Source: Planctomycetota bacterium (GTDB taxonomy: Bacteria > Planctomycetota > B15-G4). From it: a stretch of 15,417 nt of DNA. The position numbers and the translations under genes were made by a program. The stretch is taken from the NCBI GenBank assembly GCA_038212275.1, contig JBBQUR010000035.1, positions 1 to 15,417 of the forward strand, written 5' to 3'. Shown here piece by piece: positions 514 through 15,417 of this stretch. Every line of letters begins with the position of its first letter. Positions within the stretch are counted from its first letter, which is position 1. A model generated the notes under the pieces. It did no database searches. It saw only the letters and a list, made by a program, of their open reading frames with translations, and was not told the origin of the DNA.

Positions 514-734
514 CCCATGACGCTGCGCCCACGGTGCTGCCGTGTCATCGATTTAGCCGTTTTGTGTCATTCTGTGTTTCTTGCTAACTGCATGCCCATT
601 TCCTCCAGACGCTGAGTGAGGCCACCCGGGGGCCGGGCCGGGGCGGGTGAATTGCGTCCAAAGTTGCGCTTTTGACTCCCGTTTCTCGCGAGATCGCCCC
701 CGGAGGAAGCTTTGACGCACCCCCCGCTCCCCGA

Positions 735-877: not shown

Positions 878-2341
878 ATGGATAGTCCTTCGTCTTCCCA
901 TCCAAATGTTTCGACCAGTTTGCATCCCACTGCGCCGCTGCGGGTCCGACGCGTTTCACTGGCGCAGCTGCACCATGACCCGGCCAATGCCCGGCTCCAT
1001 GGATCGGTCAACCTCGATGCGATCTCCGCGAGCCTGAAACGGTTCGGCCAGGCCGAGCCCCTCATCGTGCAGGCCGGCACCGGGATGGTCATCGCCGGCA
1101 ACGGCCGGATGGATGCGATGAAGGCTCTCGGCTGGACCGAGTGTGACGTCGTCGAGCTGGACGTCACGGGGCTCGACGCGACCGCGCTGGGCATTGCCCT
1201 CAACCGCACGGCCGAGCTCGCCGAGTGGGACAATCCCGCCCTGACGCGCCTGCTCGAGACGCTGCGTGCCGAGGACAGCCTGGACGGCGTCGGGTACTCC
1301 TCCGGCGACATCGACAACCTGCTCGACGAGCTGCAGGCGTCGCTCGGTGACGGCAGCAACGGCGACCTCGACGTCGTGCCGGAACCGCCCGAGAACCCGG
1401 TAACGCGCCCGGGGGACCTCTGGCTGCTCGGCAACCACCGCCTGCTCTGCGGCGACAGCAGCTCCCCTGCCGATCTCGACCGGCTGCTGGCAGGCGCGCC
1501 TGTTCACTTGGTGAACACCGACCCGCCCTACAACGTGAAGGTCGAGCCGCGCAGCAACAACGCCATCGCCGCGGGCAATTCCAGCTTCACGAAGACGCCC
1601 CAAACCCACCACCAGAAGCTGGACCTCGCGCGGCACCCCGAGAAGGCCAGGCCGACAGGGCGCATGCGCGCGAAGGACCGCCCGCTCGCCAACGATTTCG
1701 TGAGCGACGAGGCCTTCGAGAAGCTGCTCGCGGCGTGGTTTGGGAACATCGCGCGCGTGCTGCTGCCGGGCCGCGCCTGCTACACGTGGGGCGGCTACAG
1801 CAACTGCGGCAACTACCCGCCCGCCTTGAAGGCGGCCGGCCTGTACTTCAGCCAGGCCATCATCTGGGTGAAGGGGCACCCAGTCCTGACCCGCAAGGAC
1901 TACATGGGAGACCACGAGTGGTGTTTTTACTCGTGGAGAGAAGGCGCGGCGCACCAGTACTTCGGGCCGAACAACGCGACGGACGTGTGGGCCGTGAAGA
2001 AGGTCAACCCGCAGTCCATGGTGCACCTCACGGAAAAGCCCGTGGAGCTGGCCTCACGCGCGATCCTCTACTCGTCGCGGCGTGGTGAGAACGTCCTCGA
2101 CCTGTTCGGGGGCAGCGGGTCCACGCTCATGGCCTGCGAGGACACGCAGCGCCACGCCCACCTCATGGAGCTGGACCTGCCCTACTCCGATGTCATCGTC
2201 ACGCGCTGGCAGAATGCCACCGGACGCAAGGCCGTGCTCGAAGCCACCGGCCAGCCCTTCGATGAGGTCGCCCGCGAGCGCGCCGCGAGCGCCGAGTCCA
2301 CGACGCCGCCCCCGCCTGACACCGCGTCGCCGCCGGAGTAA
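878..2341 (+). CDS. ParB/Srx N-terminal domain fused to an N6-adenine/N4-cytosine DNA methyltransferase (beta class, orphan), about 487 aa
   Basis: ParB-like N-terminus (DPANARLH...ISASLKRFGQAEPLIV...VIAGNGRMDAMKALG), then the phage-MTase linker GDLWLLGNHRLLCGDS. Motif IV TDPPY precedes HLTEKPVEL and motif I VLDLFGGSGSTL. ATG 878 was chosen because GGAG lies at 868-871. Confidence 0.93.
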   Translation: MDSPSSSHPNVSTSLHPTAPLRVRRVSLAQLHHDPANARLHGSVNLDAISASLKRFGQAEPLIVQAGTGMVIAGNGRMDAMKALGWTECDVVELDVTGLDATALGIALNRTAELAEWDNPALTRLLETLRAEDSLDGVGYSSGDIDNLLDELQASLGDGSNGDLDVVPEPPENPVTRPGDLWLLGNHRLLCGDSSSPADLDRLLAGAPVHLVNTDPPYNVKVEPRSNNAIAAGNSSFTKTPQTHHQKLDLARHPEKARPTGRMRAKDRPLANDFVSDEAFEKLLAAWFGNIARVLLPGRACYTWGGYSNCGNYPPALKAAGLYFSQAIIWVKGHPVLTRKDYMGDHEWCFYSWREGAAHQYFGPNNATDVWAVKKVNPQSMVHLTEKPVELASRAILYSSRRGENVLDLFGGSGSTLMACEDTQRHAHLMELDLPYSDVIVTRWQNATGRKAVLEATGQPFDEVARERAASAESTTPPPPDTASPPE

Positions 2342-2347
2342 CGGCCC

Positions 2348-2857
2348 GTGAACCGCCTCCCGCCCGACGCCTACCAGTACTTCGCCAGCCTCGATCCCAA
2401 GCGCCGCAGCTACGAGACCGTGGCCAACCACTTCGGCGTGTCCAAACGCACGGTCTGCACGCGGGCGGGCCGCGAACAATGGCGCGCCCGCATCGCCAAG
2501 ATCGAGGCGCAGGCCCGCGATCAGTTCGACGAGAAGCAGGCTGAGTCACTCCAGGCGATCAACGCCCGGCATGTGAAGACGGCGCGGTTCATCCTGGCCA
2601 AGGGTATTGAGGCGCTGCGGTCAATGCCGCTGCTGTCCGCGATGTCGGCGGTCAGGGCGATCGAGATCGCCATCAAGGTCGAGCGACTCGTGGTGACAGA
2701 CCCCGGCTCAAACGCCTCCGAAGATGCGGCGGCGAAGCGGCGCACGAAGGCGCACGAGCTGGCGGAAGAGATGCGGCTGGCGATCGCGGGCTGGCATGCC
2801 TTGGTGCCGAGCGCGCCGCCGGACGACGCCCCGGAGGCGCACGACGCCGACGCCTGA
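2348..2857 (+). CDS. HTH + helical protein resembling a phage terminase small subunit, 169 aa
   Basis: N-terminal HTH (RSYETVANHFGVSKRTVCTRAGREQW) followed by long amphipathic helices. It starts 6 bp after the ParB-MTase, the usual position of terS in prophages. GTG start. The function is inferred. Confidence 0.55.
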   Translation: MNRLPPDAYQYFASLDPKRRSYETVANHFGVSKRTVCTRAGREQWRARIAKIEAQARDQFDEKQAESLQAINARHVKTARFILAKGIEALRSMPLLSAMSAVRAIEIAIKVERLVVTDPGSNASEDAAAKRRTKAHELAEEMRLAIAGWHALVPSAPPDDAPEAHDADA

Positions 2858-3110
2858 TCGGGCCCGCGACGGAGCGTGCCACGCCGGCGCGATCTAGGCG
2901 CAATCCGAACATGTCCTCCCTACTCAACGACCGCCCCGAGATCGGTGGCGGAGCCTGGCGAGAAGAGGCCGGGACGCGAGCCGCTGCGCGTTAAGTTCAC
3001 GAGGAACCCGCTGAGCTAAGCGACCGGATGCTCGGCAAGCGTGGCTCGGCTTCCCACCGTGAGTCGAAGCACTGACCCGCGCGCGCTCGGCGATACCAGC
3101 GCCGCGCTGC

Positions 3111-3728
3111 TCACGGTCGATGCACTCTTGTCTGGCGCAGGAGGCGCACCACGGCCTTCCCGGGCTCGCTGAGCGCCCACACATCGTGCCCGGCCTTGGT
3201 ACTCGCATCACCGAGGCTCTCGCGAGCCAGCACTTCCAGAAGCGCGTTCAGCGAGACGTAGGCACCAAAGGAATGCAATGCGAGGTGTGAGCGCTGTAGC
3301 AGCGCGCGAATGGCTGGTTCCCTGAGATCGTGCAGCCCGCTGGACATCTCATCGCCGAGGGCCAGCAGGTAGTCAGCCGCAGGCGCAGATTTTCCGCCAA
3401 TCGAGACCGCTTCGGACTGGAGCGTGGCGACGGCAGCGTGGATGTCTATGCCGTCAATAACGTGCAGGCTGCGTAACCGCAGCCAGGTTGGAAGGCGTGC
3501 GTCGAGGGCCCGTAGCCACGAGTCGGGTATCGCGGGCAGGGCGAGTGCCGCCGCTACGAGCATTCCAAGCACCGAGGCCACGCCAAGGATGTTGTTGATC
3601 GTCAGCATCTCGGGCGCCTTCCCAGTCGCTTCCTTGGCGCCAAGGAGTGCCGCGTAGCCACAGATCGCGGATACGACGAGGAGGAAAAGCGCAATGACCC
3701 GATGCCCAGCTGGAAGGGGAGTTCCCAT
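3111..3728 (-). CDS. Hypothetical membrane protein (2 N-terminal TM helices + soluble C-terminal domain), about 205 aa
   Basis: This is the 3' part of ORF 3111..4082; the upstream part is antisense to the integrase and unlikely to be coding. Hydrophobic segments VIALFLLVVSAICGYAALLG and ILGVASVLGMLVAAALALPAI. The C-terminus WALSEPGKAVVRLL resembles a winged-helix tail. Confidence 0.65.
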   Translation of the reverse strand: MGTPLPAGHRVIALFLLVVSAICGYAALLGAKEATGKAPEMLTINNILGVASVLGMLVAAALALPAIPDSWLRALDARLPTWLRLRSLHVIDGIDIHAAVATLQSEAVSIGGKSAPAADYLLALGDEMSSGLHDLREPAIRALLQRSHLALHSFGAYVSLNALLEVLARESLGDASTKAGHDVWALSEPGKAVVRLLRQTRVHRP

Positions 3729-3861
3729 TCGCGCAGCCTGCCCGCTCGACCACCCCGCTGGCAAACCGGCTCCGGAGTCCGCGCCGCGGCGGTGATCGGC
3801 GCCCTCGTCCAAAAGATGCCACGCACGGGCGATCCCAGCGCGACTCCGCGCCGTTTGAGGG

Positions 3862-3890
3862 CCTTCCCCTCTGCAGCCTTCCCTTCTCCT
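3862..3890. repeat. Pyrimidine-rich CCTTCCC repeat tract upstream of the tyrosine recombinase
   Basis: CCTTCCCCTCTGCAGCCTTCCCTTCTCCT. CTTCCCTTCT (3878-3887) is the exact reverse complement of AGAAGGGAAG (13364-13373). Confidence 0.5.
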
Positions 3891-3926
3891 AGCAAATGAG
3901 CCCTGATCCTGGCCGGAGGTCCCAGG

Positions 3927-4802
3927 ATGCAGGTGCGGCAGGCACTCGAACGATTCCTGATCCAGCTTCAGGCCGACGGCCGCGGCGGCTCGATCTGCGC
4001 GCAGTACCAGCGGCACGTGCGCTGCTTCGACGCCTGGCTCGCGCGGAACCGCTACAAGCGCGACGTCGCCGGGCTTTCCCACGAGCGCGTTGCGGAGTTT
4101 CTCGCGTCACCGGCGGCGCGGGTGCGGCCCGACGGACAGCCGAAACTGGCGACCAGCGTGAACGTCCTGCGCGGCTCGCTGAAGAACTTCTTTCGCTACT
4201 GCCACCTCGCGGGCCTGACCGACAGCGACGTGGGGCGCCTCATCCGCCGTGCGCACTGCAGCACGGCACCGCCACGCTGGCTGTCACCCGACGAGTGCAC
4301 GCAGTTGCTGCGCACGCTCAAGGCCGAGAGGGGCGCTATCGCCCGGCGAGACGCGATGTTCGTGCAGCTGCTGCTCGGGACGGGCGTGCGCCTCGGGACG
4401 GCCCTGGCGCTCACCGACGCGGACGTGGACCTCCCCCGCCGCCTGCTCGCACTCCGCGAGATGAAAGGCGACCGCCCGGACCTGCTGGTCATCAGCGCCG
4501 GAATCGCCAAGGCCCTGAGGGCGTACCTGCGCGGCCGGTCGCCCGGCGCACTCTTCGACAACGGCGCGGGTCGGCCGCTCGGGCGGCGGCAGGCTGCGAC
4601 ACGGCTGGCCCTATGGGGCGAGCGCGCCGAGTTACCGCAGCGGCTGACCGCGCATTCGCTGCGGCACACCTTCGCGAGGCGGCTGTACGAGCGCACCGGC
4701 GACGTCTTGGTCGTGAAGGAGTTGCTCCGGCACAAATCCGTGGCGTCCACCCTCATCTATGCCAGCGTGGACGGCCGCGACCTGCGGCGGGCGCTGGGGT
4801 AG
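3927..4802 (+). CDS. Tyrosine recombinase/integrase, XerC/XerD-like, 291 aa
   Basis: Catalytic set intact: R in GTGVRLG, K in EMKGD, HSLRH, LLRHKS and terminal IY. A SAM-like core-binding N-terminal domain is present. GGAGG RBS at 3915-3919. Confidence 0.95.
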   Translation: MQVRQALERFLIQLQADGRGGSICAQYQRHVRCFDAWLARNRYKRDVAGLSHERVAEFLASPAARVRPDGQPKLATSVNVLRGSLKNFFRYCHLAGLTDSDVGRLIRRAHCSTAPPRWLSPDECTQLLRTLKAERGAIARRDAMFVQLLLGTGVRLGTALALTDADVDLPRRLLALREMKGDRPDLLVISAGIAKALRAYLRGRSPGALFDNGAGRPLGRRQAATRLALWGERAELPQRLTAHSLRHTFARRLYERTGDVLVVKELLRHKSVASTLIYASVDGRDLRRALG

Positions 4803-4803
4803 G

Positions 4804-4819
4804 CCGCTGTGCGCAGCGG
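4804..4819 (+). terminator. Hairpin immediately after the integrase stop (possible weak terminator or pause site)
   Basis: CCGCTG-TGCG-CAGCGG, a 6-bp stem with no U-tract. Confidence 0.25.
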
Positions 4820-5102
4820 TGAAGGAGTTGGCCGCGACCGTGGGTCGTTCCGCGCGCCCCCTCGGCCGGTTTGTAGCGCTCACCGGTGAACTCGCCGACC
4901 GCGCCAGCCCCGAGTTTCCGCTCCTCCTCACTCGGCACATGGTCCCGCGTGGGCTTCTGCGGGCGGTAGCTCGTCCTTCGTCGCAACGAACGATCGCCCG
5001 GAGAATGCGGTCGAGGGGGCTGACAGCACAACCATCCCCTCGCCGCTTGCTTCGATCACCTCGTGTTTCGATCCTACGCACAGCGACACGTCCCCTGCGA
5101 GG

Positions 5103-5792
5103 ATGCCGACGATGCGGAACCCGAAGGCCAATAGCCGCGCGCGCCCGGCCACGGCAGGCGTCACGTCGGACGCTCATCCTGTGAATTTGGATCGAGCTGG
5201 CCGCACGCTTCGGGATCGCCAGCAAGTCCTCCGACTCTGCAAGCAATCGCCGCTCCGAGCTCTGTCGGTCGAACTCGACGCACATCTGCGCGCCCATGAC
5301 CGGGAGCCAGAGCCGCGCGGAGGCAAGCGCGGTGGCGGCCATTGGCTCGCACAATCTGCGGACCGAGCGGCCGCATTCGTCCATCACCTGAGACTGAACG
5401 ACGGCGAGAGCCTTTCAGCGTTGCCAGACATGAACATACGCAAGCATCCACGTCGTGCGTTCGTAAGCCTGCAGATGTGGTGCGAACTGGAAGAACACAA
5501 CATGATGGGCGAAGTGGATCACCTTGGTGCACGACCCGGCACGCTTGCTGCGCTCCGTGAGCTAATGGATGTGCTCACGATCAACGAGCCATTGCCGGTC
5601 GTCCGAAAGGCCGCCCACGTACGGCGAGACTGGGACGAGATCGCCGCCATCGGTAAGAACTGGAAGGAGAACGGACGTCGAGGCCTGCCAGCGTTCGCTG
5701 CCGATCACGGATTCACGATCGACGAAGCGAGACGGATCATCGATCGATTCCGCAAGGGCCCTCCCAAGAGTTGGAATCCTGGCAAGCGCTAA
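5103..5792 (+). CDS. Hypothetical protein with probable C-terminal HTH (candidate element regulator), up to 229 aa
   Basis: Best ORF between the integrase and the control region. The C-terminal LPAFAADHGFTIDEARRIIDRFRKG is HTH-like. The start codon is uncertain. Confidence 0.55.
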   Translation: MPTMRNPKANSRARPATAGVTSDAHPVNLDRAGRTLRDRQQVLRLCKQSPLRALSVELDAHLRAHDREPEPRGGKRGGGHWLAQSADRAAAFVHHLRLNDGESLSALPDMNIRKHPRRAFVSLQMWCELEEHNMMGEVDHLGARPGTLAALRELMDVLTINEPLPVVRKAAHVRRDWDEIAAIGKNWKENGRRGLPAFAADHGFTIDEARRIIDRFRKGPPKSWNPGKR

Positions 5793-5798
5793 CTGCAC

Positions 5799-5961
5799 GT
5801 TCCGATTCCGACGCGGACTCGCGAGTTCTCGCTAATTCCCGCAGGTCCGCAGCAGTCCCCGGTAGTCCATTCCAAGATGGAATGGACGTCGGAAGGGATT
5901 TCCGGATTCCATTCCGAGATCGCCCTTAGAAATCGCGCCGGTGCGGAGAACGGTTCTCCGC
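5799..5961. promoter_or_regulatory. Control region with helically phased repeats and perfect palindromes upstream of the xis-rep operon
   Basis: GTCC recurs at 5845, 5855 and 5865 (10-bp period, degenerate copies at 5825 and 5835). Perfect IR GTCCATTCCA-AGA-TGGAATGGAC (5865-5887), perfect IR GCGGAGAAC-G-GTTCTCCGC (5943-5961), palindrome ACTCGCGAGT (5817-5826), and many ATTCC/TTCCG copies. Confidence 0.7.
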
Positions 5962-5989
5962 TGCTCAGCCGACCCCTGAGGGCGCGTAC

Positions 5990-6133
5990 ATGGCCTCCAA
6001 TTCTCGCGGAGCGCAAGCTCCACCTGCTTTGCTCACCACGCTTGAAGTGGCAACCATTCTGGGCTGCCTCCGACGTCACGAGCGTCGCCTCGCCTCAACG
6101 ACTCCAGCACAGGCTGGCAAGGGCGCTTCATGA
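5990..6133 (+). CDS. Short Xis/AlpA (HTH_17)-like protein, 47 aa, apparently lacking the wing (possibly degenerate); not in the ORF track
   Basis: Translated by hand: MASNSRGAQAPPALLTTLEVATILGCLRRHERRLASTTPAQAGKGAS*. LLTTLEVATILGC.RRH.RRL fits the excisionase-type HTH start. GAGGG RBS at 5978-5982. The stop overlaps the rep ATG (ATGA 6130-6133). Confidence 0.6.
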   Translation: MASNSRGAQAPPALLTTLEVATILGCLRRHERRLASTTPAQAGKGAS

Positions 6134-6975
6134 GGATGAGAACCATCAAGCCGGACTTCTTCGCCAACGAATACCTTGCCGAGCTTTCACCGCTGACGCG
6201 CCTGCTCTTCGCCGGGCTGTGGTGCTACGTCGACCGTGAAGGCCGCGCTGAGTTGCGTCCCAAGCGCATCAAGGGCGCGATCTTCCCATACGACGAATGT
6301 GACGTCGCGACGATGCTGAGCGAGCTCGAATCGCGCGGCTTCATTAGAAAGTACAGCGTTGGTCACGTGGATTACCTCGTGATCCCGAAGTTCCTCGAGC
6401 ACCAACGGCCTCACTCCAAGGAGGCTGACAGCACCATCCCGAGTCCGCCCCGGCACCCACTTGGGTTGGTGCCGGCACCGACCCTGGTAGGTGCTTGCAC
6501 TGACCTAGGCAGTGGCGAGCACGCTCAGTCGTTGGGGGCTGGGGAGTTGGATCTTGGTAATGGGATCTTGAATGCAGGTTCGGTGCCGGTCGGCCCCGGC
6601 GTGTCGAAGCAAGAAAGGGTCACGCGCAAAGCTGCGACCGGCGCTCACGCAGAACTGCTCGCCTGGTTCGTCGCCCGCTATGCCGAGACGCAGCGATCGC
6701 CGTATCACGTCACCGGAAAGGATGGGACCCTCCTAGCTCGACTTCTAAAGATCTTCTCCGCCGACGAACTCCGAGTCCGAGCAGAACGGCTCCTGACGAC
6801 GGACGACACCTGGATCGGAACCACGGACCGAGGAATCGGCGTGCTGGCCTCGCAGATCAACAAGCCTGTCCTGCGCGGCATTAAGCCGCCCTCCGTGAAA
6901 CGCGACATCCGGGTCGGCCAAGCCTCGCCGTCGCCGGCATCCGCATTCATCGAAACGCGGGAGGTGCAGCTATGA
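6130..6975 (+). CDS. Phage-type replication initiator (replisome organizer, lambda O analogue), 281 aa
   Basis: The N-terminus RMRTIKPDFFANEYL...RLLFAGLWCYVDREGR...IKGAIFPYD...LSELESRGFIRKY...IPKFLEHQRP is the typical phage initiator winged-helix domain. It has an iteron-containing linker and is coupled to a DnaC-like gene. Confidence 0.85.
   Translation: MRMRTIKPDFFANEYLAELSPLTRLLFAGLWCYVDREGRAELRPKRIKGAIFPYDECDVATMLSELESRGFIRKYSVGHVDYLVIPKFLEHQRPHSKEADSTIPSPPRHPLGLVPAPTLVGACTDLGSGEHAQSLGAGELDLGNGILNAGSVPVGPGVSKQERVTRKAATGAHAELLAWFVARYAETQRSPYHVTGKDGTLLARLLKIFSADELRVRAERLLTTDDTWIGTTDRGIGVLASQINKPVLRGIKPPSVKRDIRVGQASPSPASAFIETREVQL
6431..6575. other. Putative replication origin inside the initiator gene: 22-bp iterons plus an adjacent G/T-rich unwinding-like tract
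   Basis: GCAC recurs at 6431, 6453, 6475, 6497 and 6519 (exact 22-bp period). Central units are hyphenated palindromes, e.g. GCACC-G-ACC-CT-GGT-A-GGTGC at 6475-6494. GGATCTTG follows twice (6549-6556, 6563-6570). Confidence 0.75.
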
Positions 6976-7694
6976 AGAACGACTTGGCAGGAAGGGTGGC
7001 GGCCGCAAGGGCGAAACAGGCAGAAGCGGCCGTTCGCGCGGCTGCTGACGATGGCCGACTGGAGGTCGTCGTGCCGCCGCGGTCTTTCGTTGCCGACGAT
7101 GTGCCTCGAACTGATCCCGCGGATCTAAAATCCAAAGAGACGCGCGCCGCCCTCGTCGCCGCCGGGGTGCCACTGGACTATGCCGAGCTGGCGTTGAGCG
7201 AAGCCGTTCACGACACGTCGTCTGTCCATCATCTTCGCAGTGCGCTCACAAAGGGCGCCCGATTCGTGGTCTTGGCAGGCGACGTGGGCGTCGGCAAGAG
7301 CATGGCCGCTGCGTGCTGGCTTCGGCAGATGCGCTCCATCCACGGCCCCTGCGGCATGCAATGGCGCCACGCTCACCAACTTGCGCGGATTGCTGGCTAC
7401 GGTCACGAGGATGAACAGAAACTGCTCGAGCAGTGCAACTTCCTCGTGCTCGACGATCTGGGAGTGGAGTTCAACGACGCCAAGGGTTTCCTCGCCGCGA
7501 CGATCGATTCGCTCGTTTACCAGCGGCATGGCAACCGGCGGCACACCGTGTGCACGACGAACCTCGCATTGGATGACTTCAGGGCGAGGTATGGGCCTCG
7601 CGTAACCGACCGACTCAAACAAGTGGGCGTCTTCCTGGAGATCGCGGGCCAGTCGCTACGCACCGCACTTAGGCAGCCGGAGGCGGCGTCGTGA
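6972..7694 (+). CDS. DnaC/IstB-like AAA+ ATPase (helicase loader), 240 aa
   Basis: Walker A GDVGVGKS, Walker B LVLDDLG, sensor-1 TTNL, and RYGPRVTDRL...GQSLR. ATGA overlap with the initiator. Confidence 0.9.
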   Translation: MKNDLAGRVAAARAKQAEAAVRAAADDGRLEVVVPPRSFVADDVPRTDPADLKSKETRAALVAAGVPLDYAELALSEAVHDTSSVHHLRSALTKGARFVVLAGDVGVGKSMAAACWLRQMRSIHGPCGMQWRHAHQLARIAGYGHEDEQKLLEQCNFLVLDDLGVEFNDAKGFLAATIDSLVYQRHGNRRHTVCTTNLALDDFRARYGPRVTDRLKQVGVFLEIAGQSLRTALRQPEAAS

Positions 7695-8041
7695 CTTCAT
7701 CCGAATCCCCGCCGGCACGCTCCATGCGTGTAACCGTCACGAGTATCCGCCCCGCGGGTGATCGCGAACGCGACCGCGGCCTGCTCGCCTACGTGACGGT
7801 GCTGGTCAACGACTCGCTGCGCCTCGATGGCCTCACGATTCGGATCAGCCGCGAGGGCCGGCCGACCGTCTGCTTTCCCGAACGGTCCGATGGTCGTGGT
7901 CGCAACCATCCGCTGGTCTGGCCGGTCACGCCGGAAGCGTGGCGCGCCTTCGAGTCCGAGATCCTGTCGGCCACGGACATCGGGCGCTTCGTTGCGCCAG
8001 CGGCATCGCGGCCCGCAACGCAAGCGGATTCCGGCCCATGA
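7691..8041 (+). CDS. SpoVG-family nucleic-acid-binding protein, about 116 aa
   Basis: LLAYVTVLVNDSLRLDGLTIRISREGRPTVCFPERSD...HPLVWPVTPEAWRAFESEIL follows the SpoVG pattern. GTGA overlap with the DnaC-like gene, GGAGG upstream. Confidence 0.8.
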   Translation: MTSSESPPARSMRVTVTSIRPAGDRERDRGLLAYVTVLVNDSLRLDGLTIRISREGRPTVCFPERSDGRGRNHPLVWPVTPEAWRAFESEILSATDIGRFVAPAASRPATQADSGP

Positions 8042-8346
8042 ACGCGTCCACGATTTCCAGGTTCGACCCCGCCACGATGGCCCCGCTCGCGCGCCTGGCC
8101 GAGATCGCGCAACTCTTCGCGATCGGCTACCTCCGCGCGCGTGTGCGCGCCACGGCGCGCCGTGTGGCCAAGGATGCGCCCGTCCTCCGCAGTCCTGCCG
8201 TCAAGGGCCGAAGTGCCGGCTGTAGCCGCCCCCGGAATCGCCTTGCGCTCTCTCGCGAGCCTGAGCGTGCATGTCCACGCCGAGAGCGGCGGGGCTCCCC
8301 GACGCGCGACTCGGCGACGGAAACCACGCGCGAGAGTCCTCGATGA
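8038..8346 (+). CDS. Small hypothetical protein, 102 aa
   Basis: ATGA overlaps at both ends. The N-terminal DPATMAPLARLAEIAQLFAIGYLR resembles, from memory, the small ORF usually found directly upstream of DUF2924-recombinase pairs. The C-terminus is low complexity. Confidence 0.6.
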   Translation: MNASTISRFDPATMAPLARLAEIAQLFAIGYLRARVRATARRVAKDAPVLRSPAVKGRSAGCSRPRNRLALSREPERACPRRERRGSPTRDSATETTRESPR

Positions 8347-8747
8347 GCAAGACCGAACAGACGCCCCTCTGGTGGAACGCAACGGCCGCGATCCGCTGCC
8401 GAGATCACCTGCCCCTGCCGGGCAGCCACTCGTGGTGGCACGGCAACTGGACCATGATGCCGCCGCAGGACCGCGACCGCCTCGCGCGATTGAACGGCCA
8501 CGCGCCGACGTGCGAGACCTGCGAGTCCGAATCCTCGATCAACCCCGCGTGCGCGCACGCCGCGTACCTCGCCGCCCGCGTCCGCGTCGCCCGCGCGATC
8601 ACGGCGCTGGTCGAGCACCTCGACATCCTCGATGCGGGCGAGGACATCGCGCAGACCGACTGGTCCTTCGCGGGCACGTTCAACCACGTCGCAGAGACCA
8701 TCGAGACGCTGGTCCCGGCCGCCTCGACGCGGGAGGCCGTGCGATGA
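8343..8747 (+). CDS. Hypothetical protein, 134 aa; N-terminal Trp-rich C-x2-H...C-x2-C putative Zn domain plus C-terminal helical domain
   Basis: ATGA overlaps at both ends and strong GC3 bias. Motifs IRCRDHLP, CETC and DWSFAGTFNHVAETI. Confidence 0.7.
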   Translation: MSKTEQTPLWWNATAAIRCRDHLPLPGSHSWWHGNWTMMPPQDRDRLARLNGHAPTCETCESESSINPACAHAAYLAARVRVARAITALVEHLDILDAGEDIAQTDWSFAGTFNHVAETIETLVPAASTREAVR

Positions 8748-9019
8748 AGACCGCCACCACGCCACGCCCCGTCCTCCGCGACGACCAGCTCTACCTCGGC
8801 GACAACGGCCGGATCACCTGCGGCGCGCATGCCGGGATGTCCGCACGCTTCACGGGCCGCGCGCTCGACGGGATGCCCGTGGTCGAGATCACGGGCGCGA
8901 CGCTCGACGCCATGCTCGCCGACCTTGGGCCGAGCATGGCCCACCTGCTGCGCTGCGAGGTCCCGTCCTGCGCATGCACCCCGAAGCGCGTGATCGTTCC
9001 GATGGGCGGTGGCCGATGA
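8744..9019 (+). CDS. Hypothetical protein, 91 aa; C-x2-H...C-x4-C putative Zn domain
   Basis: 3' part of ORF 8141..9019, starting MKTATT. GGAGG RBS and ATGA overlaps. Motifs LYLGDNGRITCGAHAG and RCEVPSC. Confidence 0.7.
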   Translation: MKTATTPRPVLRDDQLYLGDNGRITCGAHAGMSARFTGRALDGMPVVEITGATLDAMLADLGPSMAHLLRCEVPSCACTPKRVIVPMGGGR

Positions 9020-9438
9020 ATCCGATGACCAAGGAGAAGGCGGCCGCGCTGAACCGCGACCTGCAGGTGGCCATCGCGTCGATCGCCGGCCGGCACGGGA
9101 TGTTGATCCGGAGCTGCGTGCTCAGCTACGGGCCGACGTTCGTCCGCATCCGCGCCGAGATCGCGGGCGCGCTCGACGACGACTCCCCCATCGCGGACTC
9201 CGCCGCCGTGGACTTCGACAACCACGCGGCGCGCATCGGCCTCGGGCACGTCGCGCGTGGCGAACCCGTGAAGCTCAGCGACGGGCGCACGTACACGGTG
9301 ATCGGCTTCAAGCCGCGGGCGAAGGCTCGGCCCGTGATCGTCGAACGCGACGGGAAGCAGTACATGGTTCCGGTCGCCGAGATCGCGGCGGCCACGCGCG
9401 GGGGCGCAAGCGGGCCCGGCGTGGGAGGTGTCGCATGA
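9016..9438 (+). CDS. Phage-type hypothetical protein, 140 aa, with an SH3-like beta-rich C-terminus
   Basis: 3' part of ORF 8632..9438, starting MNPMTKE. ATGA overlaps. C-terminal GRTYTVIGFKPRAKARPVIVERDGKQYMVP. Confidence 0.7.
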   Translation: MNPMTKEKAAALNRDLQVAIASIAGRHGMLIRSCVLSYGPTFVRIRAEIAGALDDDSPIADSAAVDFDNHAARIGLGHVARGEPVKLSDGRTYTVIGFKPRAKARPVIVERDGKQYMVPVAEIAAATRGGASGPGVGGVA

Positions 9439-9647
9439 CGGACACATACGGACCGATGTACCCCGACATCCGCGTGACGCTCACGGGCACCGACGGCAAT
9501 GCCTTCGCTGTACTCAGTGCGGTGAATCGGGCGTTGCGACGCGCCGGGATCGGGAAGGTCGAACGCGATGCGTTCATCGCCGAGGCCACGGCCGGCGACT
9601 ACGACCACCTGCTAGCCACCGCGATGCAGTGGGTGGACGTCGCATGA
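9435..9647 (+). CDS. Conserved small phage/MGE protein, 70 aa
   Basis: YPDIRVTLTGTDGNAFAVLSAVNRALRRAG...AFIAEATAGDYDHLLATAMQWVDV is a recognisable uncharacterised family (GxDGNAF...GDYxHLL). GGAGG RBS and ATGA overlaps. Confidence 0.8.
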   Translation: MTDTYGPMYPDIRVTLTGTDGNAFAVLSAVNRALRRAGIGKVERDAFIAEATAGDYDHLLATAMQWVDVA

Positions 9648-9895
9648 AACGCCCCACCACGACCACGCTTCCGATGCACCGCGCCGACCGCGCCCGCGCA
9701 GCCGCCAACGCCATGCGCGCGGTCGAGGCCGCCATCGGCCACGCTCGGCAGGCGCTCGCTGCCGCCAGCGCCGCCGAGCGGGAGTCCGGCGCGTGGTCCG
9801 ACCACGCCGCCCGCGCCCGGCTCGCCGCCACGCTCGTGGACCTGCGCGCCATCCGCCGCGACCTGCTGCGCCTCGCCCGCGGAGGCGGACGATGA
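9644..9895 (+). CDS. Ala/Arg-rich helical hypothetical protein, 83 aa
   Basis: 3' part of ORF 9428..9895, starting MKRPTT. It exactly fills the gap, with ATGA overlaps at both ends. Confidence 0.6.
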   Translation: MKRPTTTTLPMHRADRARAAANAMRAVEAAIGHARQALAAASAAERESGAWSDHAARARLAATLVDLRAIRRDLLRLARGGGR

Positions 9896-10200
9896 CTGCG
9901 ACCGACACCTTATCTATGGCGACCGTCACCCCCCTCGCGCGGGCCTTCGCCGTCGGCCTGCGCCGCGACCTGCTGCCCGCGGTGCTCGCCGAGATCGACG
10001 CAGCCAACGCGGCCGGCGACGAGGCGTGCGCCTCACACGAATGGGTGGACGCCAACGAGACGATGGCCGATGCCTTCGCCGCCGTCATGGGCCGCGCCTG
10101 CAACCTCGACAGAGACGCCGACTGCGCGCTCTGGAACGCCGCGTGGACGCACGCGCGCACCATCGGGTTCGCCGTGCTGGCGCGAGAGGCGACCTCATGA
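9892..10200 (+). CDS. Hypothetical phage-type protein, 102 aa, CASHEWVDAN motif
   Basis: 3' part of ORF 9793..10200, starting MTATDT. GGAGG RBS at 9881 and ATGA overlaps. Confidence 0.7.
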   Translation: MTATDTLSMATVTPLARAFAVGLRRDLLPAVLAEIDAANAAGDEACASHEWVDANETMADAFAAVMGRACNLDRDADCALWNAAWTHARTIGFAVLAREATS

Positions 10201-10625
10201 CGCCCCGCCGCATCGAGGCCGCTGGCCCGGCCCTCAGCATCGCCACGCAGGTCGCCGCCTTCTTCCGGATGGACGAGGCCACGCTCCGTGCCGCCTACCG
10301 CGACCTGTTCGGCGTCGAGCCCAGCTACAGCTCGCGCACATGGATCGCCAAGGCGTGCGCCAAGCAACTTCAGATCAACGCGCGCGTCACCGAGCCCACG
10401 CCTGCGCCGCGCCGCCTCGGCCCACTGCGCCCCGGCGTCGTACTCACGCGCCTCTGGCACGGCGTCGAGCACCGGGTGCAGGTCACCGACCAGGGCTTCG
10501 TGCACGACGGCGTGCCCTACCGCTCGCTCACCGCGGCGGCCCGCGCGATCACCGGCCAGCACTGGTCGGGGGCGCTGTTCTTTGGGCTGCGCGGCCGCAG
10601 CGGCAAGCGGAGCCGGAAGCCGTGA
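10197..10625 (+). CDS. DUF2924 domain-containing protein, 142 aa
   Basis: LRAAYRDLFG...LRPGVVLTRLWHGVEHRVQVTDQGFVHDGVPYRSLTAAARAITGQHWSGALFFGL is the DUF2924 signature. It sits in the canonical position directly upstream of a serine recombinase. Confidence 0.9.
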   Translation: MTPRRIEAAGPALSIATQVAAFFRMDEATLRAAYRDLFGVEPSYSSRTWIAKACAKQLQINARVTEPTPAPRRLGPLRPGVVLTRLWHGVEHRVQVTDQGFVHDGVPYRSLTAAARAITGQHWSGALFFGLRGRSGKRSRKP

Positions 10626-12190
10626 CGACCACGGCCGCTCATCGCCGCACCAACCGCCCGGTCGCCTCCGTCACGCAGCCGATTCGCGTGGCGCTCTACA
10701 CGCGCAAGAGCACCGCCAAGGGCCTCGACCAAGAGTTCAGCTCCATCGATGCCCAGCGCGAGTGTCTCGAAGCGTTCGTCGAGGAGCATGCTGCCGACGG
10801 ATGGGAGGCCATCTCGACGCGGTACGACGACGGCGGCATCTCCGGAGCAACTACCAACCGCCCGGCGTGGCAGCGGCTTCTCAGCGATGTGAAGCACGGC
10901 CTGATCGACAAGGTCGCCGTCTACAAGCCCGACCGCCTGTCGCGCGACTCGACCGACGCCGCGTTGATGATGAAGTACTTCCGCAGCGTCGGCGTGACGG
11001 TGGTGTCGCCCACCGAGAGCCTCGGCCAGGACACGGCCAGCGACCGCCTCTCGCTGGGCCTGCGCATGCAGGTCTGGCAGTACGAGCGCGAGATTGCCGT
11101 CGAGCGCATCCGCGACAAGATGCGCGCCGCCCGGAAGCGGGGCCAGTGGCAGGGCGGGCGTCCCGTGCTCGGCTACGACGTGAAGGACAAGAAGCTCGTC
11201 GTCAACGCCGCCGAGGCCGCCGATGTCGTGGCCATCTTCGAGACCTTCGCGCGCACGACGTCCATCTTCGCCACGCTCCAGGATCTGGAACGCCGCGGTA
11301 TCCGGCTCAAGAGCTGGACCACGCAACGAGGTCGCCGCAACGAGGGCCGCGCCTTCCGTGATCCCTCGCTGAGGACGCTGCTGACCAACCCGCTGTACGT
11401 CGGCCAGATGTACGCGGGCGACGAGGTGGTGCCGGCCGACCACGAGGGCATCGTCGCGCAGCCGCTCTTCGACGAGGTGCAGGCGCTGCTCGTCGGGCAG
11501 ACTGCCGCGCGGGCAACCCGGCAGCCGTGGAGCGCACTGCTCACTGGGCTGCTGACGTGTGGCGCCTGCGGAGCCGGGATGACGCCGAGCTACTGCGTGA
11601 AGGGCGGCGTGCGGTACGGCTACTACACCTGCCAGCGCATCAAGGAGGCCGGCGCGACGGCGTGCCCGGGCTCGCGCGTGGCGCAAGGCGCGGTCGAGGC
11701 AGCGGTGATTGAGCACCTCCGCGCGCTCGGCAAGAACCCCGCGCTACTCGCCGAGACGGTCGCGGCCGCGCACGTCGAGGTGGATGCGCAGCGCGTCGAG
11801 CTGGCAGCCGACGCTCAGCGGGCCGGCACGGAGGCCGCGCGCCTGGCCACCGACATCAACGACCTGGTGGCGCGTGGCACGGACGGTCCGGAGCTGCGGC
11901 GACGACTCGAATCCCTCCGCGATGCGCACGACGCCGCGACACGCCGCAACACGGAAGCGAAGGACGCGCTCGCCGCGCTCAAGGCGCAGGACATCGACGC
12001 GACCGACGTGCGCCGGGCCATCGAGAGCTTCGGGCCGGTGTGGGACGAGCTGTTCCCGGAGGAACGGGCGCGGCTGATCCGACTGGTCGTGCAGCGCGTC
12101 ACGGTCACGGGGGCGACGGGCGAGACGGCGGTCGAGCTGCATCCAAGATCGGGCGCCTCGAATGCAGAAAACGTACGCGCTTCACGGTGA
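10622..12190 (+). CDS. Large serine recombinase (resolvase + recombinase + zinc-ribbon + coiled coil), about 522 aa
   Basis: ALYTRKS (catalytic Ser), DDGGISG, RPAWQRLL, DRLSR, YEREIAVERIRDK, LGYD, LLTNPLYVG, and zinc ribbon CGACG...YYTC...C. Real start is taken as GTG 10622 (GTGA overlap with DUF2924), not 10070. Confidence 0.95.
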   Translation: MTTTAAHRRTNRPVASVTQPIRVALYTRKSTAKGLDQEFSSIDAQRECLEAFVEEHAADGWEAISTRYDDGGISGATTNRPAWQRLLSDVKHGLIDKVAVYKPDRLSRDSTDAALMMKYFRSVGVTVVSPTESLGQDTASDRLSLGLRMQVWQYEREIAVERIRDKMRAARKRGQWQGGRPVLGYDVKDKKLVVNAAEAADVVAIFETFARTTSIFATLQDLERRGIRLKSWTTQRGRRNEGRAFRDPSLRTLLTNPLYVGQMYAGDEVVPADHEGIVAQPLFDEVQALLVGQTAARATRQPWSALLTGLLTCGACGAGMTPSYCVKGGVRYGYYTCQRIKEAGATACPGSRVAQGAVEAAVIEHLRALGKNPALLAETVAAAHVEVDAQRVELAADAQRAGTEAARLATDINDLVARGTDGPELRRRLESLRDAHDAATRRNTEAKDALAALKAQDIDATDVRRAIESFGPVWDELFPEERARLIRLVVQRVTVTGATGETAVELHPRSGASNAENVRASR

Positions 12191-12254
12191 GGTGTCTGGC
12201 CTCCAGCTCTTCGACGAAGGCGCGCAATTTATTACAGTGGCGCGGTATTCCTCG

Positions 12255-13280
12255 ATGGCACAGGGAAGAATGCATCAGCACACTCTCGCCGCGACCTACC
12301 TAAAAGGGTTTCTCTCGCCTGAGACAAGACCCGGACACCAGCCGTCATTATGGGTACACAACCTCGCCCGTGACTCATGGAAGGCACGAGCGCCCAGCAA
12401 CGTCAGCAAGCTGCCGAACTACTATTCCGTCGAGGGCGATGACGGCAAGCTTCGCCACGATGCCGAACGTGCACTTGGCGTCCTCGAAACTAAGATCACT
12501 CCGATCCTCCGCGACCTACTTCCCGAACAACGCGAGCTCGATCCAGAGCAACAGTTGGACTTGGCAATGTTCGCCGGGACAACGTTGTGGCGCGTGCCGC
12601 ATGTTCATGAGGCCGTTCGCCCGAGCATGGAGGCGCGAATGCGTCAAGCATTCGCGCGGCAGTGGGTGTTCGTCCAGTCAGAACCCGAGTTGCTCGCCGA
12701 ATGGCGCCGCCTCTTCAGCGACACTCTTGGTCCGTGTGGCTCGCTTGAGGAACTCATGGGTGTGGTCTTGGACCCCACCAAGATTCGCATCGTTCCTGAG
12801 CGCCACATCATTGTCGGTCACTGTCTTCAGCGTGGCATTGCCACTGCTAGGGCTCTCATGCAGATGGGCTGGCGCATACTTGTCGCACCGCCGAGTACAT
12901 GCTTCGTCACCAGCGACAAACCCGGCGGTGTGCTCCACCCCTTGCCTGGGCTATCCAGCGTCGGTCACAACGCGTTGGTCGCAGAGAGCATGCTGATGCT
13001 CCCTCTGACCAGTTCCCGGGCCTTGCTCGCAGCACCGTGGATGGAGCAGCGAGGCTACGAAGACGCCTCGGCTGACGACGTCGAAATGATGAATGGCGTA
13101 ACGGTTGAAGAAGCGAACCACGTCGTCGCCCCATCGACAGCCTTTCTTGGCGACGCCTATCTGAGCATCTGGCGTGAGCGCGCGCGAAAGGTCGCGAGGG
13201 GGGAGCCCGTGGTGCCAGTCCCCGTGCCTGATGCTGAGTTCTCGAACCTGCTGCGGCAGCACTTCGGAATCCAGGGATGA
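12255..13280 (+). CDS. DUF4238 domain-containing protein, about 341 aa (cargo)
   Basis: N-terminal HQHTLAATYLKGF, SNVSKLPNYYS, AERALGVLE, FVTSDKP and LMLPLTSSRAL follow the DUF4238 pattern. Start is ATG 12255 or 12270. Possible promoter TCGACG-16bp-TACAGT at 12211-12238. Confidence 0.75.
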   Translation: MAQGRMHQHTLAATYLKGFLSPETRPGHQPSLWVHNLARDSWKARAPSNVSKLPNYYSVEGDDGKLRHDAERALGVLETKITPILRDLLPEQRELDPEQQLDLAMFAGTTLWRVPHVHEAVRPSMEARMRQAFARQWVFVQSEPELLAEWRRLFSDTLGPCGSLEELMGVVLDPTKIRIVPERHIIVGHCLQRGIATARALMQMGWRILVAPPSTCFVTSDKPGGVLHPLPGLSSVGHNALVAESMLMLPLTSSRALLAAPWMEQRGYEDASADDVEMMNGVTVEEANHVVAPSTAFLGDAYLSIWRERARKVARGEPVVPVPVPDAEFSNLLRQHFGIQG

Positions 13281-13314
13281 AGCGGACGTACACCTGGCGC
13301 TGACGTGACGGTGG

Positions 13315-13373
13315 AGTCCAGGACTTGCAGGGGGAACCGAAGGGAAACGCTGGGAAAAGGGGAAGAAGGGAAG
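13315..13373. repeat. GGGAA repeat tract with an adjacent small palindrome
   Basis: GGGAA at 13332, 13342, 13352, 13360 and 13368 (spacings 10, 10, 8, 8). AGTCC-A-GGACT inverted repeat at 13315-13325. Confidence 0.65.
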
Positions 13374-13668
13374 ATGCGTTTCACGCCTGATGAGGGCAAC
13401 CCCTCGGCTCCACGGCACGAGCATACCGCAACATCAGGGTCATGCAGGTCCCCTCGCCAACGGTCGCTATTCGAGGCACGGACCGGCGACGGTGCGGGCG
13501 CTGAAGCAGCTAGGCAAGGCGGGAGCCTGAGGCGTAGGAGTGCTTTTCAATCACCACGGAACATTCCGTTTCGCCCCTACCTGCGGCATTGGTACACGAA
13601 TGGGAGTAGGCGGCGAGTGAAGAGGCGGTGAACATGGTTTGGCGCAACAGATCTACTAGGAACCGAGA

Positions 13669-14334
13669 ATGAGAACTAAAGCAAAGTTCTGGCTCGCCGC
13701 TGGCAGTTGGGCACTTTGGTTTTTCTTAGCGATGCTCGGGCTGCTCGGCAATTGGGACACCATCGTAGGAAGTCTCCCCGAGTCGTGGTCGGCTCTCTTG
13801 ATCGGATCTATGCCGACTGGGACGCGCTGGGCGCTACTGGCACTGGCCGCACTGGCAGGAGTAGCTGTACGGCTCTTCATTGAGAATCAGCGCCTCATGG
13901 CTGGTGAGGATCCAGTCGTCTTGGCCGAGGTCAAGGGAACCGGTGGCTTCTATTGGCGGGTACTGCCGCGCCCGTACTCGATCCCCGACGATCCCGCGGA
14001 ACCAGAACGTGGCTATGCCGAGACGTGTATGTTGACGCTCATGAATCGCAGCGGAACGCGTCACGCGGCCGTTGTTCCATTCATTGAAGTCATGCAGCCG
14101 AACGGTCCTGCCAAACTTGTGGAAGCGCGCTGGTCGAATGCGGGCGGTAGGCCCGGATCATATCTGCATGAGTGCCTCGCACCAGGACAGGTTTCAAATC
14201 CGACTCCCTTCGTCTACATGAAGTCGATGCCCGATCTGGATCTGCTGCGACAATCGAGGCTTGTCCTGCGTGACATGTATCGCGTTGGGGAGCATTACGT
14301 CTTGGTGGAGCCCGGCCGACAGACCGAAATCTAG
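13669..14334 (+). CDS. Hypothetical membrane protein (2 N-terminal TM helices + beta-rich C-terminal domain), 221 aa
   Basis: AGGA RBS before ATG 13669. Hydrophobic FWLAAGSWALWFFLAMLGLLG and WALLALAALAGVAVRLFI. Weaker GC3 bias than the neighbouring core genes. Confidence 0.7.
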   Translation: MRTKAKFWLAAGSWALWFFLAMLGLLGNWDTIVGSLPESWSALLIGSMPTGTRWALLALAALAGVAVRLFIENQRLMAGEDPVVLAEVKGTGGFYWRVLPRPYSIPDDPAEPERGYAETCMLTLMNRSGTRHAAVVPFIEVMQPNGPAKLVEARWSNAGGRPGSYLHECLAPGQVSNPTPFVYMKSMPDLDLLRQSRLVLRDMYRVGEHYVLVEPGRQTEI

Positions 14335-14441: not shown

Positions 14442-14984
14442 ATGAAACTGAAGGACGTCGCCGTTTCCGATCTCCGCCGCGAACTCGCCCGCCGCGAATC
14501 CGGAGCCACGAAGCTCCAGGCCACGCGCGCTGCCATCAGCAAGCAGCTCGCCGCGCTCGAGGCTGAGCTCGCCGATCTCGGGATGGATGCGGCTCCCGCG
14601 CGGCGTGGCCGCAAGCCGGGCCGCCCCAAGGGCAGCACGAACAAGCCGGGCAAGGTCGGCCGGCCGAAGGGCTCGAACGGCAAGCGCGCCAAGAACTCCA
14701 TGAGCCTCGTCGATGCGATTCTGAAGGGCGTGCCGACGGGGAAGACCGTGTCCCCCGCCGAGGCAGCCGTCGCCGCGAAGAAGGTCGGCTACAAGACCAC
14801 CTCGCCCAACTTCGGGATGATGGTCGCGAACGCGCTAAGCAAGGACAGCCGCTTCAAGCGCCTCGGGCGCGGGCAGTACCAGGTCGGCGGCGGGAAGCTC
14901 GCTGCGCCGAAGGGCAAGAAGGCCGCGAAGGGCAAGGTGGGCCGCAAGCCGAAGTCTGCGGCCGCCGCTTCGGCCGCGGCCTGA
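14442..14984 (+). CDS. Basic nucleoid-associated-like protein: coiled coil + AT-hook-like linker + winged helix + Lys/Ala tail, 180 aa
   Basis: AAAGGA RBS at 14428-14433 before ATG 14442. Coiled coil LRRELARRE...LAALEAELADLG, linker RRGRKPGRPKGS and VGRPKGS, wHTH-like SLVDAILK...NALSKDSRFKRLGRGQY. Confidence 0.75.
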   Translation: MKLKDVAVSDLRRELARRESGATKLQATRAAISKQLAALEAELADLGMDAAPARRGRKPGRPKGSTNKPGKVGRPKGSNGKRAKNSMSLVDAILKGVPTGKTVSPAEAAVAAKKVGYKTTSPNFGMMVANALSKDSRFKRLGRGQYQVGGGKLAAPKGKKAAKGKVGRKPKSAAAASAAA

Positions 14985-15126
14985 GGATCAAGCCATGATC
15001 ATGAAGTCGGACTTCGTGCGCGCGCTCGATCCCCGGAGGTCGTACCTGCCGGCACCTCGGGCGCCAGAAGCCACGTCCCGGATCACCGAGCACGCTGACG
15101 CCCCCACCAATCGGACTCTGCACGCC

Positions 15127-15417
15127 ATGACGAACGTATCCGCTCTGTCCCTCGCCGGACTCCGTGCCGAGATCGAGCGCCGCGAGAAGGCATCCGGCCA
15201 ACTCCAGGCACGCCGCGAGAAGCTGGTCGCGGAACTCGCCGCCCTCGACTGGGAGATTGCGGCGATGGGCGGCAAGCCTGGCGCCGCCGTCGAGTCCACG
15301 GGGGCGGCGTCAACCCGCAAGTCGCCAGGCCCGCGCGGCCCTCGAGCGAAGAACACCGTCAGCCTTGCCGATGCGCTCGCCATGGCCGTCGAGCCGCGTG
15401 CGGTCATCTCCCCCGCC
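15127..15417 (+). CDS. Paralog of the 14442-14984 protein, 3'-truncated by the window edge; not in the ORF track
   Basis: Translated by hand: MTNVSALSLAGLRAEIERREKASGQLQARREKLVAELAALDWEIAAMGG...RAKNTVSLADALAMAVEPRAVISPA. It aligns with LRRELARRE/LAALEAEL/RAKNSMSLVDAIL/VSPA of the upstream gene. The frame is open back to ATG 14995, an alternative start with GAGGA upstream. Confidence 0.8.
   Translation, partial: MTNVSALSLAGLRAEIERREKASGQLQARREKLVAELAALDWEIAAMGGKPGAAVESTGAASTRKSPGPRGPRAKNTVSLADALAMAVEPRAVISPA

Follow-up and report, generated by a model that had tools for sequence, protein, structure and literature searches.

A candidate TerL-less derivative of Planctomycetota integrative islands that encode a terminase without capsid genes

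Described satellites and the island in the window

Phage-inducible chromosomal islands of the PICI/SaPI type (SaPIs are the Staphylococcus aureus pathogenicity islands) are defined for SatelliteFinder, in the available part of its description (PMC10085698), as small integrative elements that carry an integrase, a replication module and the small terminase subunit TerS. The window, as we call the whole stretch of DNA that was analysed, is the entire contig C35, 15,417 bases long, which belongs to a Planctomycetota metagenome-assembled genome (MAG; G000) with 40 contigs and a completeness of 91%, and those relatives of its genes that bear names are Planctomycetota MAGs too. An earlier note on this sequence had proposed that it holds a phage-satellite-like element, functionally equivalent to a PICI though built differently; in such an equivalence its TerS would redirect the large terminase subunit (TerL) of a helper phage. 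The window does contain an integrase function (an Xer-type tyrosine recombinase and a large serine recombinase), a replication module and TerS, and it has no tail or lysis genes. The slot of the PICI regulation module (an AlpA, MerR or Stl homologue) is occupied by a 47-aa open reading frame (ORF), which had been called xis-like; this identification is not confirmed, as the ORF scores only E 0.03-0.09 against the profiles of this slot in relatives and matches no family in Pfam, PHROGs or NCBIfam. The PICI primase-replicase is absent, with Rep and a DnaC-like protein as a functional analogue, and relatives carry primases. The capsid-morphogenesis gene is absent as well, as it is in SaPIs, and TerS is the only head family present. 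The likeness is in doubt at the terminase: the TerS of a PICI redirects a helper TerL, whereas the island family to which the window belongs encodes its own TerL, and the window carries the ruin of a TerL gene together with a TerS that lacks the predicted docking motif. The functional equivalence is not supported. Unlike PICIs, the family also has a ParB-like DNA methyltransferase (MTase) heading its packaging genes and combines DUF2924, a large serine recombinase and an Xer recombinase.

Other satellites share parts of this plan. Capsid-forming PICIs (cf-PICIs) encode TerL as well as TerS, as do most relatives of the window, which itself retains only a decayed fragment; however, the gene content of cf-PICIs extends to capsid, portal and head-tail proteins (PMC10085698, available part), none of which was found in the window or in 27 of the 29 TerL loci considered below. 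VEIMEs (integrative mobile elements that are virion-encapsidated; PMC9618062) and PICI-like tycheposons (10.1101/2020.12.28.424599) are, in the accessible parts of those reports, integrase-bearing, replicating and capsid-less, as here, and among VEIMEs some combine a serine with a tyrosine recombinase and some possess TerS (PMC9618062). These elements encode TerS or a capsid gene but depend on the helper for TerL (both reports), and VEIMEs, for which concatemers inside virions are characteristic, have been seen in virions (PMC9618062), whereas packaging of the present islands is a prediction. The EPIPs of Mycolicibacterium are similar in size (about 11 kb), serine integrase and TerS, but carry genes for a head-tail adaptor, a stopper and a tape measure, and no TerL is listed for them in the available part of their description (PMC12822802).

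As far as these sources describe them, the satellites compared either use a borrowed TerL (PICI, VEIME, EPIP) or produce a head of their own (cf-PICI). A TerS and TerL kept under selection without portal or capsid would form a motor that needs to dock on a foreign portal, and terminase-portal specificity therefore becomes testable with natural pairs. The window works like a phage satellite at best, and it fails the features of both PICIs and cf-PICIs. In Pfam, PHROGs and NCBIfam the window proteins matched no family of capsid, portal, tail or relaxase proteins, in agreement with the earlier note, and the portal, major capsid and tail genes that a complete prophage has linked to its terminase were not found elsewhere in the 91%-complete genome either. 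The layout had been suspected to be undescribed, and our full-text literature searches, which covered few subscription papers, returned no description of a class with a terminase and without a capsid, and passages of PMC12366544 contain nothing pertinent; the supplementary lists for VEIMEs and SatelliteFinder might hold cases. As new we regard this TerL-less derivative and its TerL remnant, the parallel loss of a predicted docking helix, and a clade of TerL in which an ATPase is joined to a zinc-finger-like tail.

TerL in the island family and its remnant in the window

The reading that we favour, with a probability of about 0.6, is that the window is a TerL-less derivative of a family of Planctomycetota integrative islands, a passenger or relic left without the motor or the hook for it. 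The observed basis comprises gene content, synteny, the TerL remnant, the loss of a motif and purifying selection; the contact between TerS and TerL is modelled. A second copy of the island lies at the end of contig C17 in the same genome and contains the MTase, a small membrane protein, TerS, TerL and Xer. Its MTase, TerS and Xer are 69%, 42% and 47% identical to those of the window, and its TerL is a protein of 428 aa with Terminase_6N/6C domains. Because this sibling retains TerL, the question becomes what happened to TerL in the window copy.

DUF2924 occurs in 18 of 101 related genomes; among 401 genomes of the phylum, 23 have matches to the TerS profile and 14 contain the close TerL group (above 700 bits), and scans of collections contributed further loci from genomes (10), metagenomes (12) and IMG/VR (15). 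The genes are commonly arranged in the order MTase, a PnuC-like gene in some, TerS, TerL, Xer, a regulator slot, an AlpA slot, the replicon, SpoVG, small genes, DUF2924 and the serine recombinase, in place of which some members end in a second tyrosine integrase. Family cores measure about 9-14 kb. The expectation that the gene set is conserved as a unit, and does not represent one end of a complete prophage, is supported, and library matches confirm the ParB-MTase, terS-like, Xer integrase, Rep, DnaC-like, DUF2924 and large serine recombinase genes that had been named from the sequence. The replicon slot is interchangeable: relatives have primases, helicases or PolA, and Rep/DnaC is found only in the window. 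The claim of a replicon without primase-helicase therefore stands for the window copy, to which this swap is peculiar, but not for the relatives. The candidate origin within rep, three palindromic repeats spaced by 22 bp, is also sustained, its score being equalled in none of 200 codon shuffles.

TerL is present in 39 of 54 loci (a count that leaves out the duplicates L047, L049, L052, L053 and L080), 29 of which include 3 kb or more of downstream sequence. All 34 full-length TerL sequences, two of them from phages, retain Walker A, Walker B and the three nuclease aspartate motifs, and dN/dS ranges from 0.04 to 0.38 in 11 pairs. In 27 of the 29 loci tblastn gave no match to 13 portal, protease and capsid queries, and the remaining two are phages; similarly, a PHROGs scan of about 220 of the 323 cluster representatives, those inside or near elements, detected head genes besides the terminase only in L079 and L085, two phage contigs. 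A quick TerL tree groups 42 rows from portal-less loci with an SH-aLRT support of 93, below the starred mark; two phage TerLs are placed just outside this group, and more distant TerLs, several of them portal-adjacent, lie beyond (of its labels, L137 is marked portal-adjacent with no portal found there, and the unlabelled L126-L128 and L131 do have a portal). The tree fits, but does not prove, a single origin of the family TerL from a phage packaging operon.

That the nearest TerL relatives, at 56-59% identity, are found in phages with portal and capsid could also mean that the islands are prophages which each lost their structural genes, or that the window is a prophage cut by the assembly; its contig ends inside mobile DNA on both sides, and in G065 DUF2924 lies beside a portal-bearing module. 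This explanation is very unlikely and, for the family, largely refuted: not even a portal fragment was found in the 27 loci, the same island genes follow TerL across many families under purifying selection, and bounded examples have no virion genes. In G380 a pair of 58-bp tRNA-Arg repeats, 18.7 kb apart, flanks an element with no virion gene match. The island in G306 lies between 234-bp repeats 32 kb apart and adjoins a tRNA-Gln.

A profile built from the 34 TerL sequences finds one match in the genome besides the C17 gene, and this match is located in the window at 4777-4950 (E 2.2e-6; next best 2.6). The absence of TerL asserted earlier is thus correct with respect to an intact gene, but a decayed N-terminal fragment persists. 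It spans Walker A, whose lysine is absent, and its DNA is 67% identical to intact terL genes. Without the overlap with xer the remnant scores 15.1 bits, and random peptides from the genome score at most 6.2, with the exception of two rows at 88 and 23 bits that are presumed to be draws from TerL or the remnant. The remnant begins in an 18-nt similarity that the 3' end of xer has with the Walker A codons; TerL may accordingly have been lost through a microhomology deletion.

The TerS tail and possible modes of travel

The window TerS is modelled as a helix-turn-helix, a long helical hairpin and a tail helix (pLDDT 87). With Foldseek, the viral match at rank 3 is an annotated TerS (E 2e-3); structure searches found nothing in the PDB at E 0.001, and the matches at Z about 8 were generic helical hairpins. 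Residues 1-119 correspond to the family core, and the protein departs from the family after P119. We modelled the TerS-TerL complex with the C17 sibling pair, against a score mark that 116 of 157 solved pairs attain, as do 2 of 215 mismatched pairs. Residues 126-142 of the sibling TerS, centred on W137, are placed on the N-terminal domain of TerL with a score of 0.72, compared to 0.42 for the best control; at least 62% of the contacts agree between runs, and the partner pLDDT is at least 53. In phage and gene transfer agent terminases the C-terminus of TerS is reported to lie on the ATPase domain of TerL (PMC6854486, available part), and the pass of the model may reflect likeness to known complexes. 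With the profile of the predicted docking helix, the window TerS scores 2.2, the median of shuffled sequences being 2.0; in leave-one-out scoring, all 24 TerS that adjoin a full TerL reach 31-55. Eight of the 11 TerS with enough flank and no adjacent TerL score below 10 (L076, a weak match of 119 aa, was left out). By this model-based measure, the window TerS has lost the C-terminal helix predicted to dock on TerL.

From these genes we infer excision, replication, packaging and any helper. The family would have acquired the opening part of a phage packaging operon (ParB-MTase, TerS and TerL), with portal, capsid and tail left behind. Most likely, the recombinase of an intact island would excise the element, its own replicon would replicate it, and its own terminase would cut island DNA and fill the heads of an infecting phage; in our judgement this life cycle has about an even chance of being true. 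In the window copy TerL would have been lost and the TerL-docking tail of TerS would have drifted. The recombinases, methylase and replicon of the window look intact (the ParB-MTase is 79% identical to that of L093 with a dN/dS of 0.22, and the large serine recombinase is 72% identical to that of L027 with a dN/dS of 0.33), and to judge by these sequences the copy probably still integrates or recombines and replicates. It is probably unable to start its own packaging through its own TerS; if it moves at all, it would do so solely as the passenger of a sibling that has TerL, for instance the C17 copy. The window copy itself is probably a decaying member. Together with its relatives it forms a natural deletion series, in which the predicted docking helix is lost alongside TerL, and logic in the style of SatelliteFinder could mistake such an eroded copy for a TerS-only PICI.

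Several observations weigh against this reading. The loci are not independent, and some are near-copies. The TerL remnant lies behind xer and not in the usual slot after terS, and the history of the loss is unsettled. There is no significant direct repeat (att) between the left and right flanks of the window; in most relatives a first pass found none, and those of G380 and G306 were found only with wider flanks. No credible circular joint was present among those listed in the assembled contigs, which cannot prove absence; the contigs are from two sediment runs of one study, of which one may be where this DNA came from, and all listed joints have at most 23 letters on one side. The long assembled pieces have a depth of 25-33 along the window. 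No portal or capsid gene was found in the genome with four PHROG families and tblastn, and resident helpers are rare: phrog_2662, the portal family of the nearest phages, was searched alone in 10 element-bearing genomes and gave one strong and one marginal match. If helpers exist, they are mostly phages that arrive from outside. The strong match belongs to a full prophage in G306 with TerL, portal, capsid and tail genes, and the island of G306 is TerS-only. The other three of the 11 TerS without adjacent TerL keep the docking motif (L059, 39.8; L066, 39.3, with TerL elsewhere in its locus) or are intermediate (L072, 21.7). The core of the window TerS is no more relaxed than that of TerL-bearing pairs (dN/dS 0.43-0.71 and 0.38-0.64, respectively), and its new tail is modelled with a confident helix at residues 124-152, which suggests that the tail may have a partner. 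Three TerL-less copies in one genome have a replaced tail in common, with a TerS dN/dS of 0.22-0.24, which speaks against plain decay.

The shared tail of these three copies, the intact window TerS with its predicted new helix, and the coexistence of a TerS-only island with a prophage in G306 are also what one would expect if, after the loss of TerL, a new tail recruited the TerL of a helper phage in the manner of a PICI. We consider this TerS-only satellite unlikely, as the TerL-less copies have dissimilar tails, dispersed over the TerS tree (7 changes), the window tail has no match to the family motif, no portal or capsid gene was found in the genome of the window with four PHROG families and tblastn, and the gene in the xis slot is weak.

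The relatives form a series with one TerL, two, an ATPase-only TerL with a zinc-finger tail, or none. In a clade of 7 TerL (support 100) the ATPase is intact and a CxxC..CxxC zinc-finger-like tail replaces the nuclease; the TerS of these loci have an intermediate docking motif, and tandem TerL duplicates are present among relatives. The family terminase could be a decoy or competitor against phage packaging, situated on islands of mainly defence genes, with the window copy having lost that function; the clade, the tandem duplicates, the rarity of resident portals and neighbouring cargo that matches Shango, DISARM, restriction-modification and PD-T4-3 models would all agree with this. However, the nuclease aspartates kept in all full-length TerL would be needless for a mere decoy, and TerS, MTase and replicon are retained alongside, as a packaging life cycle predicts, which makes interference an improbable explanation by itself. 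The interference and packaging roles are compatible and not mutually exclusive. More tentatively, the family could consist of phage satellites of an undescribed kind, with a complete terminase, that borrow nothing but empty heads and tails; among them the TerL-less variants would use the terminase of a sibling or have their TerS re-aimed, and those with the ATPase-zinc-finger TerL would jam or re-route packaging; we regard this as possible but doubtful.

Other features of the window and the family

The features are listed in Table 1. The boundaries 878..13375 that the earlier note gave to the element are not established. The contig ends inside mobile DNA, and by its sequence the island probably extends past both ends, because the histone-like gene at 14442 trails the recombinase in several relatives, and the motif at 550-607 and a 3' piece of a pRiA4b ORF3-like relative lie beside the C17 sibling, the latter preceding it. 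The gene at the left end is probably left-arm cargo or a target gene. Genes of the type found at the right end are right-arm genes in relatives and follow the recombinase in several of them.

Table 1. Features of the window (positions from its first base) and, in the last row, the ATPase-zinc-finger TerL genes of other loci
Feature	Position	Strand	Evidence or remark
pRiA4b ORF3-like gene, PF07929	1..513	+	E 5e-36, profile from position 29; cut by contig start
AT-rich 58-bp motif, candidate element end	550..607	.	common to left arm of C17 sibling; 78% over 58 nt, E 2e-5 against genome
ParB-like domain fused to N6/N4 DNA methyltransferase	878..2341	+	phrog_498 E 1e-115; DPPY and FGGSG motifs
Small terminase subunit TerS	2348..2857	+	phrog_6299 E 1.4e-7, model, position in relatives
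Hypothetical membrane protein, in relatives' TerL slot	3111..3728	-	no significant family in library scans
Xer-type tyrosine recombinase	3927..4802	+	catalytic R-K-H-R-H-Y motifs visible
Decayed TerL N-terminal fragment, profile positions 39-96	4777..4950	+	profile search of genome
Hypothetical protein, post-Xer slot (probable regulator)	5103..5792	+	no family match in Pfam, PHROGs, NCBIfam or Atlas search
xis/AlpA-slot ORF, 47 aa, coupled to rep	5990..6133	+	weak, perhaps truncated
Phage-type replication initiator Rep	6130..6975	+	phrog_16167 E 1.5e-44, N-terminal 107 aa
Three imperfect palindromic repeats, 22-bp spacing, inside rep, candidate iterons (origin)	6453..6516	.
DnaC-like helicase loader	6972..7694	+	Walker A and Walker B present
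SpoVG-like small DNA-binding protein, family core	7691..8041	+	library scans, relatives' profiles
Seven small coupled ORFs, common to relatives	8038..10200	+	including phrog_1933 at 9435-9647 and phrog_21393 at 9892-10200
DUF2924, coupled to recombinase	10197..10625	+	E 2e-29
Large serine recombinase	10622..12190	+	resolvase, recombinase, Zn-ribbon domains; YxRxS present
DUF4238 cargo gene, lower GC	12162..13280	+	no PADLOC match
Non-coding motif of about 96 bp, internal inverted repeat	13329..13426	.	also on C37 and C4 of the genome; weakly in L027
Hypothetical membrane-anchored cargo protein	13669..14334	+
Pair of basic paralogues (coiled coil, basic linker of low complexity, probable winged helix)	14442..15417	+	second cut by contig end
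ATPase-zinc-finger TerL in other loci	L070:6835-7809, L082:1118-2026, L084:3068-4000, L086:1717-2673 + 2673-3758, L088:2120-3253 + 3246-4199		also L087

A search for a pac/cos-like motif upstream of the MTase, with three seeds in 32 upstream regions, gave weak and patchy matches; in the window two of the seeds are not above background and the third equals the background maximum. The rule that TerL-less copies always accompany a TerL-bearing sibling was tried and failed, as G306, G224 and G159 have TerS and no TerL match at 1e-10. In the G306 prophage (L104:1538-3503) a ParB-MTase, a PnuC-like gene and TerS follow one another, forming the block with which the islands begin.

G021 has another TerS-TerL pair, of lambda type, in the chassis that runs from the MTase to DUF2924 and the recombinase, with no portal match. 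Two tandem islands (L030:3618-6441 and L031:2177-4829) likewise combine lambda-type TerS/TerL with the DUF2924-recombinase chassis and have no portal match. Four of the five loci fetched for family f58 (L134, L135, L136 and L143) have a more distant TerL that follows an ABC-type ATPase gene and precedes phrog_35576-like genes; no portal match was present in the genes scanned, and this TerL is possibly a domesticated terminase.

The Shango and DISARM matches adjoin family members in L073, L123, L109 and L116. Contig C37 of the window's genome carries a group II intron fragment and SoFic-like and PD-T4-3-like genes (L003:270-387, 7613-8740 and 12209-12961), and it ends in the same pair of basic proteins as the window. 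On C4 a small element is integrated at a tRNA-Asn (L006:2970-5638), with a tyrosine integrase, an HTH_17 excisionase, and SpoVG-like and basic-protein genes.

The non-coding motif near the right end has no Rfam family, and a hammerhead ribozyme was dropped as its identity because stem I is missing. Copies are located at L003:12076-12178 and L004:8223-8306, and the inverted repeat contains one compensatory change; in L004 the motif stands alone between housekeeping genes, like a scar. The basic proteins are multi-copy, being found also on C37, C17, C8 and C4 of the same genome, and travel with islands. Their Atlas neighbours are Planctomycetota clusters, in one of which 15% of the members have HARE-HTH, and our guess is that these proteins are silencer-like.

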